From positions 66,608 through 130,607 of the forward strand of contig MGCQ01000007.1 of the NCBI GenBank assembly GCA_001790445.1: a DNA stretch of 64,000 bases. Reading direction: 5' to 3'. The notes below the pieces were generated by a model. It was not told the DNA's origin. It was given only the letters and a program-made list of their open reading frames with translations, and ran no database searches. Shown here in pieces: positions 37,242 to 64,000 of the stretch (position 1 is its first letter; each line of letters opens with the position of its first letter). This DNA is from Candidatus Saccharibacteria bacterium RIFCSPHIGHO2_12_FULL_41_12. GTDB taxonomy: Bacteria > Patescibacteriota > Saccharimonadia > Saccharimonadales > 2-12-FULL-41-12. Both the position numbers and the translations under genes were made by a program.

Positions 37242-38765
37242 ATGAAGGCAATAATATTGGCGAGAGTATCGACCAAAGACCAAGAGGATAACAACTCTAT
37301 ACCATCTCAAACACGCCGTCTTCATGAGTACGCTGAAAAGTTCGAACTTATTGTTCTCGAGACTTATCAACTCGTAGAATCCTCGACTAAAGCAAACCGC
37401 CGAAAGTTTAACGAGCTTATTAATCGAATAAGAGAATCTGATGAGAAAATAGCACTTATCGTAGATACGATTGATCGCTTGCAAAGAGATTTTCGCGAGT
37501 CGGTCATGTTAAATGAGCTACGACTTGAGGGCAAAATTGAGCTTCACTTTGTAAGAGAGAATCTGATTATCAATCAGGTATCGAACAGTGCGGATATTCT
37601 CCGTTGGGATATGGGGGTAATGTTTGCAAAAAGCTATGTAACCCAGCTAAGTGATAACGTCCGCCGTAGTTTTGAGCAAAAGCTGAAGAATGGCGAGTGG
37701 CTGGGAAGAGCACCGTTTGGCTATAGTAACGAAGACACGCCCGAGGGTAAAAAATCGATTGTGCCTGAACCAACACAGGCAAAGATAGTGGGAAGCATGT
37801 ACCAATGGTACGCAACTAGCTCATATTCTATGAAAGAGATTCGCAAGAAACTTATTGAAGATTACGGTCTAATCAAGTCTGTTAGCAATATAGATAAGAT
37901 CTTAAAGAATCCCTTTTACTATGGCGAGATGAAAATAAAGAATGAGTTGTACCCTCATAAGTACGAGCCTGTAATTACCCGAGGTATCTTCGATCAAGTC
38001 CAAGCTGTAAAAATCGGATTCAACAAGAAAGCTTTTAAGTATGCTGGAATCCCTTATTACTATCGAGGCCTAATGCAATGCGGCGATTGTGCTTGCAGTA
38101 TTACGCCAGAAAAGAGCAAAGGGCATACTTATTATCATTGTACGCAGTATAAGGGCAAGCACGGGGCTGCATATTTGCGAGAGGAAGACCTAACCGAGCA
38201 GTTGATGGTTGCTTTTGAGGCTATCAAGCTAACACCAGAACAATATGATGAAGTAACGACAGTTCTAAAAACCGTACATAAGGATAAGGTTAAATACAAA
38301 GCCCAGCATGTGGGGCATTTGCAAACAGAGCTAACGAAGTATCAGCAACGCCTTGAGAAATTATATGAATCGCACCTTGATAATGATATAGACCCAGAAT
38401 TCTATAAACGAAAGGCTATTGAATACAGGTCTACTCGTGATGCTATCAAGACAAAGCTAGATGCCACCGATAGAGCCGATGACGATTTCTATTTTGCAGT
38501 TGATGGGCTAATTCGAATGGCTCAAAGAGCACCTGAATTACTGGCACGTTCTGAAATGGAGCATAGGAGACGGCTTATTAACTTGGTACTTCAGAACCTT
38601 ACGGTCAAAGACAGAGAACTTCGGTGGGAGTACAGAAAACCGTTCGATACATTGTACCGAACGGCTAAAACTTCAAATTGGCTGGGGATGAGGGATTCGA
38701 ACCCCCGATGGCGGAACCAGAATCCGCTGCCTTACCACTTGGCCAATCCCCATCGACAAGAGTAA
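37242..38765 (+). CDS. large serine recombinase (integrase); the integrated form has its 3' end extended through the antisense of the tRNA
   Basis: Resolvase catalytic N-terminus AIILARVSTKDQ, a recombinase domain, a Cys-rich zinc ribbon (CGDCACS...YYHCTQY), and a coiled-coil region. The last 29 codons are antisense of tRNA-Gln. Confidence 0.9.
   Translation: MKAIILARVSTKDQEDNNSIPSQTRRLHEYAEKFELIVLETYQLVESSTKANRRKFNELINRIRESDEKIALIVDTIDRLQRDFRESVMLNELRLEGKIELHFVRENLIINQVSNSADILRWDMGVMFAKSYVTQLSDNVRRSFEQKLKNGEWLGRAPFGYSNEDTPEGKKSIVPEPTQAKIVGSMYQWYATSSYSMKEIRKKLIEDYGLIKSVSNIDKILKNPFYYGEMKIKNELYPHKYEPVITRGIFDQVQAVKIGFNKKAFKYAGIPYYYRGLMQCGDCACSITPEKSKGHTYYHCTQYKGKHGAAYLREEDLTEQLMVAFEAIKLTPEQYDEVTTVLKTVHKDKVKYKAQHVGHLQTELTKYQQRLEKLYESHLDNDIDPEFYKRKAIEYRSTRDAIKTKLDATDRADDDFYFAVDGLIRMAQRAPELLARSEMEHRRRLINLVLQNLTVKDRELRWEYRKPFDTLYRTAKTSNWLGMRDSNPRWRNQNPLPYHLANPHRQE
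38679..38752 (-). tRNA. tRNA-Gln (anticodon CUG), CCA encoded
   Basis: Hand-folded minus-strand sequence: TGGGGAT TG GCCAAGTGGTAAGGC A GCGGA TTCTGGT TCCGC CATC GGGGG TTCGAAT CCCTC ATCCCCA G CCA. It has a 7-bp acceptor with U1-A72 (typical of bacterial tRNA-Gln) and a TTCGAAT T-loop. Confidence 0.9.
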
Positions 38766-38812: not shown

Positions 38813-38951
38813 AAAGTATCAAGAGTGTAGAGAGGGATCTAGCCCGACGACCTACCAGCAACCCTTTCAGTTGGGTGCTAAATCTAGTCCTGCATGCAGG
38901 AAAGATATGAAGAACTCAAATCCTTTCTTGCAAACCCAGGAGGAAGGATAT
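38813..38951 (+). promoter_or_regulatory. SAM-I (S-box) riboswitch with SD-sequestering hairpin, controlling metK
   Basis: UAUCAAGAG...GAGGGA...GCCCGACGA...GCAACC...GGUGCUAAAUC...AAAGAUA matches the SAM-I core. ATCCTTTCTT (38920-38929) can pair with GAGGAAGGAT (38940-38949), covering the metK SD. Confidence 0.85.
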
Positions 38952-38955
38952 TTTT

Positions 38956-40065
38956 ATGCCAACAATAACAAAGAAAACCAGCGAATCTGTCTGTGCGGGG
39001 CACCCAGACAAGATCGCTGACCAAATCAGCGACGCCATAGTCGACGAGGTGCTTAAGCGTGACCCAAATGGTCGCACAGCCGTGGAGACTCTAGTTGCCA
39101 GAGACAGAGTAGTCCTAGCGGGGGAGGTCAATACAACTGCAAAGGTAGATTTTGTATCCGTAGCACGTGAGCAGATCAAAAGACTTGGTTACACAGATCC
39201 ATCGTGGGGCTTCTCTGATGAATCTGTAATAGATAATCATATCCACGCTCAATCACCAGAAATATCCGTCGGTGTCGATGATTTCGGAGCAGGCGATCAA
39301 GGCATAATCTACGGCTACGCTACTAACGAGACAGACAAATATTTGCCCACGCCGATAGCCATTGCCCACGACTTGACCAGAGCTATAGACACCGCCCGCG
39401 AATCTGGTGTAATGCCACATCTACGGCCAGACGGCAAAGCGCAGGTAGTGATCAAATATATTGATAACAAACCATCCAAAGTAGATCACGTGACTGTCGC
39501 CGTGCCACACGATCCGCGTCTGTCACTGGCCAAAATCCAAGAAGATTTACTCAAGCATGTGATTACACCAATCTTGGGGAAGTATGGTTTTAACGTGCCA
39601 AAAAACGGGTTAGTGGTCAATGGCACAGGTGTCTGGCATACCCCTGGCCCTAAAAGTGATGCGGGGCTGACCGGTCGCAAGATTGTGGTTGATGGCTATG
39701 GGGGATTAGCCCATGTTGGCGGTGGAGCCTTTAGTGGCAAAGACCCCAGCAAAGTCGACAGATCAGCAGCCTATGGTGCGCGTTATATTGCCAAAAACAT
39801 CGTTGCCAAAGGGCTGGCGGACGAAGTGGAGATAGGGCTGTCGTATTTTATCGGAGCCAAAGAGCCAGTGCAATTTTCTATTGATACATTTGGCACTAAC
39901 AAAGTTCCAACCGACAAAATCCGCGCATTTGCAGTCAAATTACTCAATCCATCAGTTAAAAACATCGTTGAAACCCTAGATCTCAAAAGACCAATTTATT
40001 TGCAAACCGCCTCCTACGGCCACTTTGGTAGAGAAGAATTTCCTTGGGAAGTAATAAAAAAATAG
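38956..40065 (+). CDS. metK: S-adenosylmethionine synthetase
   Basis: GHPDKIADQISDAI, GAGDQGI and GGGAFSGKDPSKVDRSAAY signatures. Confidence 0.97.
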   Translation: MPTITKKTSESVCAGHPDKIADQISDAIVDEVLKRDPNGRTAVETLVARDRVVLAGEVNTTAKVDFVSVAREQIKRLGYTDPSWGFSDESVIDNHIHAQSPEISVGVDDFGAGDQGIIYGYATNETDKYLPTPIAIAHDLTRAIDTARESGVMPHLRPDGKAQVVIKYIDNKPSKVDHVTVAVPHDPRLSLAKIQEDLLKHVITPILGKYGFNVPKNGLVVNGTGVWHTPGPKSDAGLTGRKIVVDGYGGLAHVGGGAFSGKDPSKVDRSAAYGARYIAKNIVAKGLADEVEIGLSYFIGAKEPVQFSIDTFGTNKVPTDKIRAFAVKLLNPSVKNIVETLDLKRPIYLQTASYGHFGREEFPWEVIKK

Positions 40066-40099
40066 CTTCTTTTCGTCGGCACTAAAGTGCCTTGCACGA

Positions 40100-40129
40100 C
40101 ATACTTTCTTGTGTTGACAAGAAAGTATG
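40100..40129. repeat. 13-bp perfect palindromic hairpin (copy 1), shared with 63972-64000
   Basis: CATACTTTCTTGT-gttg-ACAAGAAAGTATG. The same stems with a different loop (gcta) occur at the window end. Confidence 0.7.
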
Positions 40130-40191
40130 CAAAGAAACAACAGGCTGTTTGAAAAATACATATTAATCCAAACAAACCAAAAGCCCTGTTT

Positions 40192-40451
40192 TTCCGGGAC
40201 TCCCTCTGGTCGGGTCTAAAGACCTAGTCCTCAAAACAAGGAGCTTTTGTTCTGCTCGTCTCATCTGTTTTTCAAAGAGCCTGACCACAAGCAGTTAGGT
40301 CTTAATAATCTGTGTTTTCTGAAGAAAACACAGTAATAAAAGACTTTAGTCTGCTTATTAACCCCTCAACTAAAAACTCCTTGGAGTAGATAATTACAGA
40401 CAGATTATTCTGAGGACCAGGGCTTGTCCCCGACTGGAAGGAGTCCCGGAA
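40192..40451. other. about 260-nt extended imperfect hairpin (candidate structured RNA or MITE-like element)
   Basis: The arms at 40192-40232 and 40412-40451 are imperfect reverse complements (ttccgggactccctctggtcggg / cccgactggaaggagtcccggaa). A perfect 10-bp hairpin sits at the centre (40310-40333). AAGCAG/CTGCTT and GTCTT/AAGAC pair in between. Confidence 0.5.
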
Positions 40452-40794
40452 GAATAGTCTTGTCAGGAATTATCTGGTTCATGGATTGTTCTTTAGTTCC
40501 GGGGTGGCACTTTTTGCTTACTTTTTCTTGCTACTGAGAAAAAGTAAGGTGATAAAAAGCCTGGAAGGCTTTAGCGCAATGAAGTTATTTTCATAGATAA
40601 TATAGTGATTTCAAAGCCGAGGGCTTTAGTCTCAATTAAGCTGAATTGAGCATAAGCGTTTGACCAACAAACAATACTATGCTAATATATATGTAATTGT
40701 TTGATGAATCCATAGAATCTGTTACTAGTTTTTACTTAGGAATTGTCAAGGAACAACCAAGTAATACTAAATAATAGAATAGGATTCATTTTTT

Positions 40795-42050: not shown

Positions 42051-42204
42051 CCTTGTCCTGCTTTCTGGCATAGCCAGAAACTCTGACAAGTCTCTTGGCA
42101 TAGAATAACTTTTTCTTCTGCGGTATTCACCTACACGGTACCATATGTACGGCTTGCTCCATTCCTCAAAGAGAAAAGTTATTCTATACTCAAGTGTGAA
42201 GGTT
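42051..42204 (+). repeat. about 150-bp structured intergenic repeat, copy 1 (after the helicase gene)
   Basis: Mostly identical to 47018-47169 outside a divergent centre, by manual alignment. Internal hairpins are TTCTGGC/GCCAGAA and a stem of about 20 bp (catagaataacttttt / aaaagttattctat). Confidence 0.8.
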
Positions 42205-47017: not shown

Positions 47018-47169
47018 CCTTGCCTGACTTCTGGCAGAGCCAGAAACTCTGACAAGGCTCTTGGCATACAATAACTTTTTCTTCTGCGGTATTCACTTCA
47101 CCGTATTGTAGATACGGCTTGCTCCATTCCTCAAAGAGAAAAGCTATTCTATGCTCAAGTGTGAAGGTT
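47018..47169 (+). repeat. about 150-bp structured intergenic repeat, copy 2 (after typA)
   Basis: See 42051-42204. Same orientation, and it begins 19 nt after the typA stop. Confidence 0.8.
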
Positions 47170-51927: not shown

Positions 51928-52581
51928 ATGCCTGGCAGAAACGTAATAAAACAATTTGAACCAGATGCTGCCTATCATATATATAACAGAGGTGTCGATA
52001 AGAAGATAATTTTTCTAGATGAGCGCGACTATGCTGTTTTTTTAAGTTTGCTCAAGTATACTATTATCCAAAAAGATGATCAATTCGATAATTCGTTAGT
52101 CTCAGAGGCCCAGCGATATAATTTTCGTCGCCTCAACTTGGCTGAGTCGGTTGATCTTCTTGCATACTGTTTAATGCCTAATCATTTTCACCTGTTAGTA
52201 TATCAGCACAGTGAAGACGGTATAACTAAAATGATGCGTTCTGTAGCCACGGCGTACAGCATGTATTTCAACAAAAGATATAAGCGCTCCGGAGCATTAT
52301 TCCAAGGTCGTTATAAAGCAAGTCGAATTCATAGTGACAGTTACTGGCAACATATAAGTAGATATATCCACCTTAATCCACTTGATGTAGGCGATAATTA
52401 CAAGTCATATCCTTATGGAAGTTTTAAAGCATATTCCGGCGAAATAAGTGTTGAATGGCTGAATACTGACATGATTCTCGGTAATTTTAGTAGTGTCAAA
52501 GAATACGTTAAATTTCACGATGACTACATCCCACGCAGAAAAGAGCTTCTTGATGTTAAAGAAATGCTAGCAAATTTTTAA
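51928..52581 (+). CDS. IS200-like Y1 (HUH) transposase, REP-associated tyrosine transposase (RAYT) type
   Basis: YHIYNRG, the HUH motif MPNHFHLL, and catalytic Tyr context SRYIHLNPL. No TnpB partner. Flanked by related hairpins. Confidence 0.85.
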   Translation: MPGRNVIKQFEPDAAYHIYNRGVDKKIIFLDERDYAVFLSLLKYTIIQKDDQFDNSLVSEAQRYNFRRLNLAESVDLLAYCLMPNHFHLLVYQHSEDGITKMMRSVATAYSMYFNKRYKRSGALFQGRYKASRIHSDSYWQHISRYIHLNPLDVGDNYKSYPYGSFKAYSGEISVEWLNTDMILGNFSSVKEYVKFHDDYIPRRKELLDVKEMLANF

Positions 52582-52675: not shown

Positions 52676-53695
52676 ATGAATGATAGTAAAATTAAAGAGG
52701 TAAAAGATCTGTTGATCGTCCGTTTTGAGAAAGACAAAAATGTAAATATTTTGCGTGCAAAAGAGCTTAAAGAACTTTATGGTATTTTGCCTACTCTACC
52801 AGAAGATCAGAGAGCCGCTTTTGGTCAATCAATCAATAAGTTAAAAAATGAGTTAAAGGAATTAATCAGCAATACCCAAAACAAAGCAGAAGAAAAACCG
52901 CTAATTGACGTAACTGCACCGATTGATGTAAATGCCCAAAAACCAGAGGTTTTATCAGCAACTATTGGATCTGTTCACCCGATAATGCGAGAAATTGCCA
53001 AGATCAATGATATTTTTTCAAAAATGGGCTTCGAAATCTGGGAGAGTCGTTATATTGATGATGATTACCATATGTTCACTAGTCTGAATTTTCCAGAAGA
53101 CCACCCAGCACGCGATGATTACGACACATTTATAACAGAGGAAGGCTTGATAGCCCCAGCGCACACTAGTACTATGCAAAATAGGATATACAAAGCCAGG
53201 AAAAAGCAGCTTGAATCAGGTCAGCCGATTGCTGCTATAGTTACAGATAGAGTGTTCCGCAACGAAGATCTGGATGCTAGGCACGAGCACACTTTTTACC
53301 AGTGTGAAGGTGTCTATGTAGCAAAAAATGTCAATGTCGGTAATCTAATAGCCACATTAGAAGAGTTTTTATCCAGTTATTTTGGTAAAAAGGTAGAGAG
53401 TCGAGTTAATCCATTCTATTTCCCTTTTACCGAGCCAAGTTTTGAATTTTCACTGAGCTGCCCATTTTGCGACAAAAAGGGTTGTCATATCTGTTCACAG
53501 GCTGGTTGGATTGAGTTGCTGGGTTGCGGCATGATCCATCCGAATGTTTTGAGTGAAGGCGGAATAGACCCATTAGTTTATAGCGGATTTGCATGGGGGC
53601 TTGGCATAGAGCGGCTGATTATGATGAAGTATGGCATAGAGGAAATTCGTCATTTTCATAGTGCAAAATTAGATTTCTTGAGGCAATTCGCATGA
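52676..53695 (+). CDS. pheS: phenylalanine--tRNA ligase alpha subunit
   Basis: Class II motifs FRNEDLDARHEHTFYQCEG and GFAWGLGIERL. Confidence 0.95.
   Translation: MNDSKIKEVKDLLIVRFEKDKNVNILRAKELKELYGILPTLPEDQRAAFGQSINKLKNELKELISNTQNKAEEKPLIDVTAPIDVNAQKPEVLSATIGSVHPIMREIAKINDIFSKMGFEIWESRYIDDDYHMFTSLNFPEDHPARDDYDTFITEEGLIAPAHTSTMQNRIYKARKKQLESGQPIAAIVTDRVFRNEDLDARHEHTFYQCEGVYVAKNVNVGNLIATLEEFLSSYFGKKVESRVNPFYFPFTEPSFEFSLSCPFCDKKGCHICSQAGWIELLGCGMIHPNVLSEGGIDPLVYSGFAWGLGIERLIMMKYGIEEIRHFHSAKLDFLRQFA
53660..53695 (+). repeat. pheS 3'-end / ATGA junction sequence, copy 1 (native)
   Basis: agtgcaaaattagatttcttgaggcaattcgcATGA. The last 23 nt are identical to 54173-54195. Confidence 0.85.
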
Positions 53696-54195
53696 CAAAA
53701 AATATTCAAATTGTTGATGACGTTGACGAGCTTATAGGGCATAAGAAACGTGATGAAATTGATTACACCAAAGATACTTATCGCTCAAGTGCATTGTGGA
53801 TTATAAATTCTCGGGGCGAAGTACTGATAGCCCAAAGAAAGACAACAAGAGACAAAGATCCCGGGAAATGGGGTCCGTCCGCAGCGGGGACAGTAGAAGA
53901 AGGTGAAACCTACGACACTAACGTGTACAAAGAGGCAAAAGAGGAAATTGGGCTTAGTGGCTACACATTCAAGAAACTAAAAAAAGAAAAAATAGATAAG
54001 CCCCGATCGCAATTTGTTCAATGGTATGGGGCTGTTGTTGATGAACCAATAGAATATTTTACTGCTCAGCTAGACGAAGTAGAACAACTAAGCTGGGTCA
54101 AAGAAGAAGAGTTGCTCGATGATGTTTCAAAAAATCCAGACAAATATGTATTTCTTATGATCAGTGCACTAAATTTCTTGAGGCAATTCGCATGA
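53692..54195 (+). CDS. NUDIX hydrolase (inserted between pheS and pheT); C-terminus encoded by a copy of the pheS 3' end
   Basis: Nudix box GTVEEGETYDTNVYKEAKEEIGL. Ends SALNFLRQFA versus SAKLDFLRQFA for pheS. Confidence 0.8.
   Translation: MTKNIQIVDDVDELIGHKKRDEIDYTKDTYRSSALWIINSRGEVLIAQRKTTRDKDPGKWGPSAAGTVEEGETYDTNVYKEAKEEIGLSGYTFKKLKKEKIDKPRSQFVQWYGAVVDEPIEYFTAQLDEVEQLSWVKEEELLDDVSKNPDKYVFLMISALNFLRQFA
54163..54195 (+). repeat. pheS 3'-end / ATGA junction sequence, copy 2
   Basis: agtgcactaaatttcttgaggcaattcgcATGA. Confidence 0.85.
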
Positions 54196-54635: not shown

Positions 54636-54673
54636 AGTTAAGTGCAGAAATTATATTGAGGCAATTCACATGA
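54632..54673 (+). repeat. chimeric junction: pheT 5' codons (ATGAAGTTAAGT) fused to pheS 3'-end copy 3; forms a 13-codon linker ORF
   Basis: atg aag tta agt gca gaa att ata ttg agg caa ttc aca tga translates to MKLSAEIILRQFT*. Its first 12 nt are identical to the pheT start (55330-55341). Its tail is 18/19 identical to the pheS end. Confidence 0.8.
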
Positions 54674-61178: not shown

Positions 61179-62192
61179 ATGAGTAATCCTAAAACTTACA
61201 GTATAGTTACCTTAGGTAGTCATTCAGCACTACAGATTCTTAAGGGGGCAAAAGACGAAGGGTTTAAAACGATCGCTGTGGTCAAAAAGGGCTTTGAGGA
61301 ACCTTATAGTTCTTTTAAGGTCGCAGACGAAATTATCAGCATCGATGAATACCCTGATTTTAGCAAGCTAGAGCAACAATTAATCGACAAAAACGCCATT
61401 TTGATTCCACATGGGACGCTTTTTGCGGCTTGTTCTGTAGACCAGCTAAAAGATAACAAAATGCTGTATTTTGGCGACAAAGAAGTTCTGGCTTGGGAAG
61501 AAAGTCGTATAAAACAGAGGCAGTGGCTTTTAGGGTCTGGACTGACAATGCCAAAAATATATGCTAATCCAGAAGATATTGACGAGCCAGCAATAATAAA
61601 GTTCAATGGCGCCGGTGGTGGCAAAGGATATTTCTTGGCTAAGAATAAGGTGGAATTTGAAGAAAAAATTGCTCTGCACAAAGATACAACGTACATAATT
61701 CAGCAATATATTATTGGTAATCCTATCTATATTCATTATTTTTACTCGCCACTAAATGATGAGCTAGAGATCATGAGTATGGATAAAAGATATGAGACCA
61801 ATGTTGACTCTATCGGTCGAATTAGCGCTTCTGATCAACTGGATTTGAACCTACAAACTTCATATAACATTATTGGTAATATCCCGATAGTGGCGCGTGA
61901 GTCAATGTTGGCTGAGTTCTTCAAAATGGGACGAGCCGTTGTTGACAAGTCAAAAGAGTTGACGAGCAAGGGAATGTTTGGACCATTTTGTCTGGAGATG
62001 GTAATTACACCGGATATGGAATATTTTGTGTTTGAGATTTCTGCAAGAATTGTCGCTGGATCAAATCCGTATATTGACGGGTCGCCATACACAGCTCTCC
62101 GCTACCCAGAACCGATGAGTACAGGTCGCCGTATTGCCAGAGAGATCAAAAATGCTATTGAGCAGAATAAGCTTGACAAGGTTTTAGGATGA
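61179..62192 (+). CDS. purP: archaeal-type PurP-family ATP-grasp protein (formate-dependent FAICAR synthetase-like), copy 1
   Basis: IVTLGSHSALQILKGAKDEGF, HYFYSPLNDELEIMSMDKRYETN, GNIPIVARESML and MSTGRRIAREIK align with my recollection of Methanocaldococcus PurP. Confidence 0.85.
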   Translation: MSNPKTYSIVTLGSHSALQILKGAKDEGFKTIAVVKKGFEEPYSSFKVADEIISIDEYPDFSKLEQQLIDKNAILIPHGTLFAACSVDQLKDNKMLYFGDKEVLAWEESRIKQRQWLLGSGLTMPKIYANPEDIDEPAIIKFNGAGGGKGYFLAKNKVEFEEKIALHKDTTYIIQQYIIGNPIYIHYFYSPLNDELEIMSMDKRYETNVDSIGRISASDQLDLNLQTSYNIIGNIPIVARESMLAEFFKMGRAVVDKSKELTSKGMFGPFCLEMVITPDMEYFVFEISARIVAGSNPYIDGSPYTALRYPEPMSTGRRIAREIKNAIEQNKLDKVLG

Positions 62193-63304
62193 TCACAAAA
62201 CAAGACATTTCAGCAGTACTGAGCAAATATAACAAAAATGAAATAACAATAGCTACGCTTGGCGGGCACAGTGCGCTGGATGTTTGCCGTGGGGCTCATG
62301 ACCAAGGTTTTAGAACACTTGTTGTGGCTCAGAGAGGACGCCACGAAGTCTACGAAAAGCATTACAAAACTAACGGAGATTTAGGCTGTGTTGACGAAGT
62401 ATTAGTTGTTGATAATTTTAAAGATGTGACTAGCGAGTCTGTCCAAAAAGAATTAGTTGCCCGGAATGCAATATTCATCCACAGCAGATATTTCTGGGTC
62501 TATTGTGATTATGATCAGGTAGAAAGTAACTTTTTGGTACCGATATTTGGCAACAGAATTTTGGTCAAAAAGGAAGAACGAGATGAAACGCAAAATCAAT
62601 ATTATTTGCTAGAAAAAGCTGGGATCAAGTTACCAAAGCAATTCGCTAACTACAAAGATATTGATACTTTAGTGATTGTAAAGGCGAACGAGAAAGAGCG
62701 AAGTTACGAAAGAGATTTCTTTCTAGTTGGTAGTCCACAGGAATACGAGTCGGAGATGATTAAACGCTTTGGAAACACATTTATTGAACATTCTCCAGTT
62801 ATAGAAGAATTTGTAGTTGGTCCAATGGTCAACTTGAATTTCTTTTATTCTGGTGTTGAAAAACGTCTTGAGCTGATGGGTACAGACATAAGGCGTCAGA
62901 CAAACATCGACGGACTTTTGCGACTAACAGCTCCAGAGCAAGAAAAAGTATTACAAAAAGTCCAACCAAAATATATTGAGAACGGACATATTGCAGTGAC
63001 GGTCAAAGAGTCATTGCTTGGTAAAATTTATGAACTTGGTGAGCAATTTGTAAAGGCTGTGGACGAGGTCTATCCTCCTGGGATGATCGGCCCGTTTGCA
63101 CTGCAAGGTGCGGTTACTGCAGGACCACCGACGGAAGAAATCTATATTTTTGACGTAAGTATGCGAATCCCGGGAAGTCCGGGCACAATGTTTACCCCAT
63201 ATTCAGGGTACATGCATGGTCAGCCCATGAGCTACGGCAAAAGAATAGCCGTTGAAATAAAAGAAGCCATTAATCAAAACAAATTAGAAGAAATAGTAAC
63301 ATAA
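62189..63304 (+). CDS. purP: PurP-family ATP-grasp protein, copy 2 (tandem paralog)
   Basis: ITIATLGGHSALDVCRGAHDQGF, FLVPIFGNRILVKKEER, GMIGPFALQG and MSYGKRIAVEIKEAI. ATGA overlap with copy 1. Confidence 0.85.
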   Translation: MITKQDISAVLSKYNKNEITIATLGGHSALDVCRGAHDQGFRTLVVAQRGRHEVYEKHYKTNGDLGCVDEVLVVDNFKDVTSESVQKELVARNAIFIHSRYFWVYCDYDQVESNFLVPIFGNRILVKKEERDETQNQYYLLEKAGIKLPKQFANYKDIDTLVIVKANEKERSYERDFFLVGSPQEYESEMIKRFGNTFIEHSPVIEEFVVGPMVNLNFFYSGVEKRLELMGTDIRRQTNIDGLLRLTAPEQEKVLQKVQPKYIENGHIAVTVKESLLGKIYELGEQFVKAVDEVYPPGMIGPFALQGAVTAGPPTEEIYIFDVSMRIPGSPGTMFTPYSGYMHGQPMSYGKRIAVEIKEAINQNKLEEIVT

Positions 63305-63339
63305 AATTTTAGTTTATTTTATCGATGAGGTAGAGTTTT

Positions 63340-63768
63340 TTAGTTGTGTACGTTGGCAGTTATACCTTGCTCTAACAAGGTTAATGTCTCTATTTCTTCT
63401 TCGTTTAAAGGGGGGAATGTTGCAATATCTCCGCTTAATAGTCCGTCAATAACATCTAAAGTTTGATGTGGCTCTAATTCGGCAGCTCCAGCGGTAGTGT
63501 TAACGGTGACTGACTCACCTTCTGCTAAGAGAATTGCGTGAGACGCTAGAGTTACTTTATCAGGATCATTTGATACAACAAGTTCTTTTGGCACTCTCAA
63601 AACCAAGGTTCCATCAGCAGATGACAAAACACGAACTTCATCTGTCCCAAATCCTGCATTGTCCAATACGCCAAATGCACCACAAATATCTTGATATGTG
63701 GGGGGTTTCTCAGCTTTTGCTGCAATTGTTCTTCTTGTCATAACCAACCTCCTCAAGTAATTAATCAC
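63340..63768 (-). CDS. hypothetical protein (start possibly Met10 at 63741)
   Basis: 142-aa ORF inside the segment bounded by duplicated purP 3' ends. No motif recognised. Confidence 0.4.
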   Translation of the reverse strand: MINYLRRLVMTRRTIAAKAEKPPTYQDICGAFGVLDNAGFGTDEVRVLSSADGTLVLRVPKELVVSNDPDKVTLASHAILLAEGESVTVNTTAGAAELEPHQTLDVIDGLLSGDIATFPPLNEEEIETLTLLEQGITANVHN

Positions 63769-63820
63769 TATTATAGTAAAATACTATAAATTTGTCAATT
63801 TGATGACTTGGTTACGGTTT

Positions 63821-63929
63821 GGGCACGATGGTTACCCCATATTCAGGGTACATGCATGGTCAGCCCATGAGCTACGGTAGTAGAATCGCCATAGAAATGA
63901 AATCAGCGATTGACCAAATTGTAACGTAA
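63821..63929 (+). pseudogene. displaced 3'-terminal fragment of purP copy 2
   Basis: 63821-63877 matches 63181-63237 at 55/57 nt. The continuation is a diverged homolog (SRIAIEMKSAIDQIVT* versus KRIAVEIKEAINQNKLEEIVT*). No upstream ORF body. Confidence 0.75.
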
Positions 63930-63971
63930 CCTAGCTCCCTTGCGTTAAAGCCTTGCAGGCTTTTTAATCAC

Positions 63972-64000
63972 CATACTTTCTTGTGCTAACAAGAAAGTAT
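63972..64000. repeat. palindromic hairpin copy 2 (cut by the window end)
   Basis: CATACTTTCTTGT-gcta-ACAAGAAAGTAT. Stems are identical to 40100-40129. Confidence 0.65.

Follow-up and report, generated by a model that had tools for sequence, protein, structure and literature searches.

The question raised by this locus is how an intact purine gene came to be followed by a second, diverged copy of its own 3' end. The locus lies at the end of a 64,000-nt stretch of DNA (hereafter the window, ending at position 64000) from a Candidatus Saccharibacteria genome of the Rifle aquifer, and it was followed past that end in L001, a 21-kb stretch around the locus from an identical 124.6-kb contig (window coordinates equal L001 coordinates plus 52188). 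Here purP2, the second of two tandem purP genes, and purA are convergent and both intact, and the DNA between them is termed the purP2-purA slot. We put at roughly 60% the probability that the region is a recombination scar in which two versions of this slot stand head to tail. In unit 1 (63181-63822) the purP2 3' end is followed by an open reading frame (ORF133) that has a promoter of its own and then by the ~13 terminal codons of a purA gene. Unit 2, most of which lies past the window (63821 to about 64530), has another purP2 3' end, a structured repeat element, and the working purA gene's 3' end. The two units are homologous at their ends, and no similarity exists between the interiors (496 nt and 579 nt); additionally, no second copy of ORF133, decayed ORF133 or other coding remnant was found in unit 2, including by tblastn.

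The last 124 bp of purP2 (63181-63304, forward strand; tail 1, the 3' end in use and the first copy of the repeat) recur in diverged form at 63821-63929 on the same strand (tail 2, the second copy), as a first-pass annotation of this DNA had reported with coordinates that were confirmed here. Positions 63181-63278 align without gaps to 63821-63918 with 84 of 98 nt identical (blastn E = 3e-24), and the reported match of 55/57 over the first 57 nt of the repeat was likewise recovered. Downstream, tail 2 carries an in-frame deletion of 15 nt (five codons, flanked by CAAA) and closes with a TAA stop codon at 63927-63929; in frame it reads GTMVTPYSGYMHGQPMSYGSRIAIEMKSAIDQIVT followed by the stop, and it is open through 36 codons. 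The longest run free of mismatches spans 46 nt (63192..63237, forward strand, identical to 63832-63877), which is longer than expected when the 14 mismatches are placed at random (run-length permutation, P = 7.8e-4), and the flanks of this block are diverged, with mismatches at 2/11 positions to the left and at 12/41 (~29%) to the right. The block is likely the footprint of homologous exchange or gene conversion.

Comparison with relatives bears on the origin of the two tails. The last 67 nt of tail 1 are 75-79% identical to the sister clade, as against 77.7% for purP2 as a whole, and no mosaic break was detected inside purP2 relative to that clade; the last 67 nt match the rest of the gene. 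Tail 2 is chimeric: its first 57 nt are identical to tail 1 at 55/57 positions and to the sister clade and two more distant relatives at 39-43/57, and the remainder matches tail 1 at 38/52 positions and the sister clade at 42-45/52. The annotation had proposed that relatives would reveal which 3' end is ancestral; the comparison could be made, and the outgroups proved divided: of the 14 differing sites in the 3' parts, they have the state of tail 1 at 3-6 and that of tail 2 at 4-8. Derived changes are divided about evenly between the two tails, and approximately 5 of 7 derived codon changes in tail 2 (codons read from the alignment) are synonymous. Since these changes are mostly synonymous and the frame is intact, tail 2 appears to have been coding until recently, and it looks like a separate, once-coding allele rather than an old, decaying copy of tail 1. 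The earlier description of one purP 3' end in use and a second, diverged one displaced is thus supported, with the refinement that the tails are distinct alleles, neither of which is a recent copy of the other. A third full-length purP paralog running into tail 2 from upstream, which would have accounted for the repeat in another way, is rejected because tblastn found no purP homology upstream of tail 2. Tail 2 is most likely inert, as it has neither a promoter nor a start codon and a hairpin with a T-run lies 3' of it.

Tail 2 does not stand alone. Joined to its 5' end is a relic of a purA 3' end (63784..63822, reverse strand), which ends in PNRNQVIKLTNL and a stop codon and whose gene body is missing. 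This relic constitutes a second direct repeat, of 24 nt: positions 63799-63822 agree at 22/24 with the working purA gene at its 3' end, which lies ~520 nt past the window end (expected number of such matches by chance, 0); against the purA genes of relatives, the homology reaches KLT. In tblastn, PurA residues 400-407 and PurP2 residues 332-363 lie back to back with one common boundary. At this junction (63821..63822) the two repeats overlap by GG; had the lost purA encoded its Gly by GGC, the codon found in L013 and L034, the overlap would extend to as much as 4 nt (GGGC). The joint between the purA end and the purP end is an illegitimate join at 2-4 nt of shared sequence. That a purA relic is fused to a displaced purP tail points to general recombination, homologous as well as illegitimate, between allelic segments. 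The working purA, for its part, ends in AAA AAA GAT TAA, of which GATTAA is common to a type of purA end, K-L-T-D-stop, that is described below.

Between tail 1 and the purA relic lies a single reverse-strand ORF, as the first-pass annotation had stated; over the proposed length of 142 aa, a 133-aa form (ORF133, 63340..63741, reverse strand, ATG at 63741) is favored by gene callers and by a ribosome-binding site, GGAGG (63748..63752, reverse strand), situated 6 nt upstream of the ATG at a position conserved in relatives. The 142-aa form, starting at a GTG, would begin within ORF133's own predicted promoter, TTGACA-17-TATAAT (63770..63798, reverse strand), which matches the consensus at 12/12 positions. 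A word-indexed search for relatives of ORF133 returned only ORF133 itself, and homologs were recovered only by exhaustive phmmer: P0002 (E = 2.5e-22, 44% identity), P0003 (E = 3e-13, 32% identity), and a third, partial homolog in L053. To the suggestion that the ORF be sought elsewhere and its company checked, the answer is therefore that relatives are few and that all of them (in L034, L035, L036, and L053) occupy the same purP2-purA slot in the same orientation. The order in every contig is purA, about 45 nt, the ORF, and then the convergent purP2. In these genomes (L034-L036) the promoter reads TTGACA-17-TATAGT, with the -35 hexamer within the last purA codons (K-L-T-D-stop), and positions 63742-63826 of the window are collinear with the relatives' last purA codons, stop codon, promoter, ribosome-binding site, and ORF start. 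Given this collinearity and the shared slot, the succession of purP tail, ORF133, and purA stub is a normal chromosomal arrangement for this group, and unit 1 reproduces that of the nearest relatives. Further, because the retained purA stub bears the -35 region, ORF133 has kept its promoter. The encoded protein is acidic (pI 4.3, and 4.3-4.5 across the family), and AlphaFold2 yields a confident alpha/beta model (predicted local distance difference test score 80, predicted template modeling score 0.72, three-sequence input); no matches to it were found in Pfam, PHROGs, PADLOC, NCBIfam, PDB, or BFVD.

The slot itself is variable. Across Saccharibacteria its size ranges from overlapping stop codons to 1.2 kb, and the ORFans in it differ between close relatives. 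Within the sister clade, it has no content in L068-70, where the stop codons of the two genes overlap; it holds 105 nt with a mini hairpin-plus-box akin to the ends of the repeat element in L071, an unrelated 82-aa ORF in L013 and L072, and an ORF133-family gene in L034-36 and L053. In more distant relatives, purP2 and purA either abut or are separated by other ORFans. The last codons of purA co-vary with the content of the slot; in every case with an ORF133-family gene they read K-L-T-D-stop, which contains the -35 TTGACA. On these observations the purP2-purA slot is a hot spot of gene gain and fast turnover in Saccharibacteria. Identity of flanking sequence gives a measure of the background: between the sister clade and the window, PurA is ~80% identical and purP2 DNA 77-78% (83-92% within the clade). 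ORF133-family alleles are 27-42% identical to each other, whereas their flanks are 76-98% identical; between L034 and L036, for example, the flanking proteins share 90-98% identity and the ORFs only 27%, and the ORF133 of the window, at 42% identity, is closer to the L034 allele than that allele is to the one in L036. Such incongruence between ORF alleles and flanks suggests allele exchange. The extreme divergence of the alleles also prompts a guess at the function of ORF133, namely a role in immunity, host interaction, or anti-defense.

Under the favored explanation, a different Saccharibacteria lineage would have supplied DNA of this locus, which would have been added beside the resident version of the slot rather than replacing it, through one illegitimate join (between the purA stub and the purP stub) and one homologous exchange within the purP tail. 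Uptake may plausibly have been by natural transformation, as a cultured Saccharibacterium has been shown to be naturally competent, acquiring and recombining DNA in a comEC-dependent manner (PMC10633639). Two variants can be envisaged. In one, a fragment of 646 bp would have circularized and then recombined into the purP tail through a single Campbell-type crossover; the junction and the chimeric state of both tails would thereby be accounted for by one event, with the ORF133 unit arriving second. In the other, linear DNA would have been incorporated by homology-facilitated illegitimate recombination, which could have run in either direction. The outcome in both would be an intact purP2, an intact purA, and an ORF133 equipped with its promoter, with tail 2 and the purA stub as non-functional leftovers. 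We lean slightly toward the ORF133 unit as the newcomer, because one event then suffices, the family of the repeat element is native to this genome, and the ORF alleles are incongruent with their flanks. Unit 2, with tail 2, the repeat element, and the purA end, could equally be the newcomer. The first-pass proposal of displacement survives as a live sub-scenario, in the version where incoming DNA with ORF133 and its own purP end displaced the resident one.

Several points weigh against this reconstruction. The microhomology that is certain amounts to 2 nt, below the 3-10 bp at which homology-facilitated illegitimate recombination is reported to join DNA in competent bacteria (PMC6382021), and since transformation imports single-stranded DNA, a double-stranded circle of 646 bp is not an expected intermediate. 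The 46-nt block could stem from a later gene conversion between the repeats and not from the founding event, and the comparisons between tails rest on 52-57 nt. Additionally, the end of the working purA could be a decayed K-L-T-D-stop, which would fit a duplication in place. Finally, no strain variants with a single unit (>90% identity) were found, and neither parent allele was seen. An ORF-type slot does occur in relatives and the mini hairpin-plus-box slot in L071, with neither exact allele in close relatives; identity to the window reaches 80% for the nearest PurA and 85-88% for the nearest PurP2, and all three proteins of the locus form singleton clusters.

A duplication in place would dispense with a donor: the purP tail, ORF133, and purA tail would have been duplicated in tandem at the GG microhomology, the second ORF would have been lost or overwritten by the genome's own repeat, and the tails would have drifted while conversion kept 46 nt alike. 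The head-to-tail junction is exactly what such an event would leave, the repeat element family is native to the genome, and the working purA end shares its GATTAA with the K-L-T-D-stop type. Simple tandem duplication would also leave units homologous over their whole length, and here the interiors are unrelated and unit 2 retains no trace of ORF133. Moreover, tail 2 should then have decayed faster than the selected tail 1, yet derived changes are about equal in number, and tail 2 has an unbroken frame with mainly synonymous changes. At least three events would also be required, and we regard duplication in place as unlikely. The recombination scar, by comparison, shows two features expected of a recombination product, namely a novel junction of a few nucleotides and a mosaic of donor and recipient at the point of exchange (the chimeric tail 2).

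A different origin was implied by the first-pass annotation, which likened the segment to elements that target gene 3' ends. In its fullest form this would make the region the remnant of a site-specific integrative element at the purP 3' end, with an attachment (att) core of 46-57 nt and an integrase since lost. Near-identical direct repeats (46-57 nt) do surround a small segment, identity is sharp at one end of the repeat, and the target gene, purP2, is kept intact by a substitute 3' end. The likeness fails all the same, because no integrase or other recombinase is present in or beside the segment, in which ORF133 is the only credible gene and to which purine genes are the neighbors; because the supposed cargo belongs to a family native to the slot and is the normal neighbor of purP2 in L034-L036 and L053, complete with a purA end and embedded promoter; and because a purA-end repeat fused to a purP tail has no place in an att model. 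Further, no matches were found in viral contigs or phage protein families, and such an element is very improbable here. Least credible, to the point of being nearly negligible, is an assembly artifact in which the slot alleles of two strains were stitched into one contig. The source is derived from a metagenome, and the NCBI genome scaffold ends inside the repeat element, as would suit that idea. Against it, no shared k-mer or repeat able to mislead an assembler exists at the junction of the purA and purP relics, and 46 identical nt are far shorter than the k = 141 of the contigs. The duplication was in addition recovered independently, as the annotation had asked: a 1.1-kb region with both copies and the junction is 99.9-100% identical across at least six assemblies, which come from different samples and were built by different pipelines (ENA/MGnify k141 contigs, ANAN16 scaffolds of two biosamples, and two assemblies of the Joint Genome Institute (JGI)); several of the assemblies extend into purA.

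The favored reading, of two slot versions stacked by recombination, has partial counterparts among known systems. Campbell-type single crossover of circular DNA, as with a suicide plasmid, leaves direct repeats that flank the insert, are chimeric at the crossover, and allow the insert to pop out. Homologous direct repeats surround the insert here too and are chimeric at the crossover point; unlike in that case, a 646-bp circle of a relative's chromosome would be needed, and no replicon or plasmid sequence is present. Integrase-driven islands insert into the 3' ends of tRNA, tmRNA, or protein genes and bring a substitute end, a pattern that is shared insofar as a gene 3' end is duplicated, one copy is displaced, and the target is intact. 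The locus differs from them in lacking an integrase, in having syntenic chromosomal DNA as the inserted piece, and in the fusion of a purA relic to the displaced tail. Islands of the variable or replacement type, for their part, sit between conserved neighbor genes and are swapped by homologous recombination, and the slot resembles them in its fixed position, in contents that are unrelated or highly diverged among close relatives, and in an allele phylogeny that is incongruent with the flanks; it differs in being very small (0-1.2 kb, with single ORFan genes) and in that an aberrant exchange here would have stacked two alleles. A further counterpart is homology-facilitated illegitimate recombination, described for transformation in Acinetobacter, S. 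pneumoniae, and P. stutzeri (PMC6382021). As there, one side would be anchored by homology and the other joined at very short microhomology, and foreign or allelic DNA would be added without an enzyme of its own element, in a host group that is competent (PMC10633639). In contrast to those cases, the microhomology is 2 nt (possibly 4) instead of 3-10 bp, both alleles are kept as a duplication with no recipient DNA deleted, and the event is read here from sequence.

The repeat element in the interior of unit 2 (I2) begins at 63933 on the forward strand, runs through the window end at 64000, and continues in L001 (11745-12296), spanning ~550 nt and stopping 13 nt short of the purA stop codon. 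Its left end includes the hairpin with a T-run (63947-63965) and a 30-nt palindromic box (63972-64001). It belongs to a family of ~500-570 nt with three copies in 73 kb, which are 76-89% identical over aligned segments; the others lie between purC and purE (L001 18518-19012) and after metK (window 40066-40600). The ends of the repeat consist of a hairpin and the 30-nt palindromic box (CATACTTTCTTGTGYTRACAAGAAAGTATG). Between the purP/purA and purC/purE copies, these ends have the same orientation and the whole interior of ~400 nt is inverted. A 49-pair hairpin module has 12 compensatory pairs in the third copy, and copy 3 alone has hairpin-plus-box modules in inverted orientation at its ends. 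The element in unit 2 folds much better than shuffled sequence (z = -8.5) and contains no ORFs of at least 50 aa. No RNA family in Rfam matched unit 2 at E <= 1, and in the whole window the only matches were a tRNA and an S-adenosylmethionine (SAM) riboswitch; exact motif matches in viral contigs, which would hint at a viral origin of the repeat, were likewise none. In having several non-coding intergenic copies with conserved hairpins, the family fits a trait of miniature inverted-repeat transposable elements (MITEs) and of REP doublets forming hairpins (REPINs), and it may represent an element of the MITE/REPIN kind or else a new RNA. A Y1 transposase gene (PF01797; of the insertion sequence type IS200/IS605 or of the REP-associated tyrosine transposase (RAYT) type) lies ~11 kb upstream of the locus at about 51928-52581 (L001 1-393); it is the only mobile-element enzyme seen in the neighborhood and has no sequence link to the repeat family. 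The tRNA is tRNA-Gln(CTG) (38679-38752, reverse strand), and the SAM riboswitch (38813-38911) lies upstream of an ORF (38956-40065) that was read as metK from its C-terminal sequence.

The genes around the slot are conventional. The first purP gene (purP1, 61179-62192) encodes DUF1246 and DUF1297, as does purP2 (62189..63304, forward strand), which is full length at 371 aa (Pfam DUF1246 E = 5e-39, DUF1297 E = 3e-59), has the DUF1246 + DUF1297 ATP-grasp architecture of PurP, and shares its length and C-terminal pattern with all relatives; its NCBI name is FAICAR (5-formamidoimidazole-4-carboxamide ribonucleotide) synthetase. In L001, tail 2 is followed by ~570 nt of non-coding DNA and then by purA on the reverse strand, beyond which come a small PaaX_M/Cas2-like gene, guaA, purB, and purC. 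GC content is 0.40-0.46 throughout, and composition is uninformative as to foreign DNA. The PaaX_M/Cas2-like gene (164 aa, L001 13651-14145) lies between guaA and purA in this lineage only; in sister genomes, which lack it, guaA and purA overlap. A palindrome, TCACGATCGTG, occurs in both intergenic regions around this gene (L001 13606-13625 and 14162-14181) and is a candidate operator, and a search around the gene for an end-duplication like that of purP2 yielded only this short palindrome repeat.

Elsewhere in the window, a direct repeat of ~150 nt (42057-42204 and 47023-47169, 88-93% identical, 4966 nt apart) encloses a hydrolase gene, corA, a 275-aa ORF of unknown function, and bipA. The hydrolase ORF has its annotated start overlapped by the first copy, and the second copy no longer has the ATG; a further scar of stacking or duplication is one possible explanation of this pair, and a recurring regulatory or RNA element is another. 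Additionally, an 18-nt motif, TTGAGGCAATTCRCATGA, occurs at 53678-53695, 54178-54195, and 54656-54673, over the start codon of each of three genes in a row (NUDIX, rpiB, and DUF5674), two of which overlap the preceding gene, and looks like a reused context of ribosome-binding site and start codon.

What these observations mean for Saccharibacteria depends on how far they are taken. At their most far-reaching, the slot would be a dedicated exchange site for cassettes and, as a separate matter, the ~550-nt repeat would be a new structured RNA or mobile non-coding element, a reading that we consider rather doubtful. Were the exchange site real, divergent alleles of a small acidic protein would move between lineages armed with the ends of purine genes and a promoter, spread by natural transformation under diversifying or frequency-dependent selection (e.g., in immunity, host interaction, or anti-defense), and the window would be a natural snapshot of an exchange caught half-way. 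Were the element new, a repeat with an invertible interior would represent a new kind in bacteria of the Candidate Phyla Radiation (CPR). The 46-nt repeat could also allow the 640-bp unit to pop out, leaving purP2 with the shorter end of tail 2.

In more modest terms, the mechanism is of a known kind, and what the locus provides is a documented case, from nature, of a CPR bacterium apparently acquiring an allele; also to be flagged are a fast-changing slot, an unannotated protein family tied to it, and an unannotated structured repeat. The genomes of Patescibacteria are tiny and gene gain in them is poorly documented, and the locus offers sequence-level evidence for one route, in which ordinary recombination appears to have added allelic DNA of a related lineage between two convergent genes, at a neutral site. 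The gene-end stubs would be the record of that event, in agreement with the transformability of Saccharibacteria in the laboratory.

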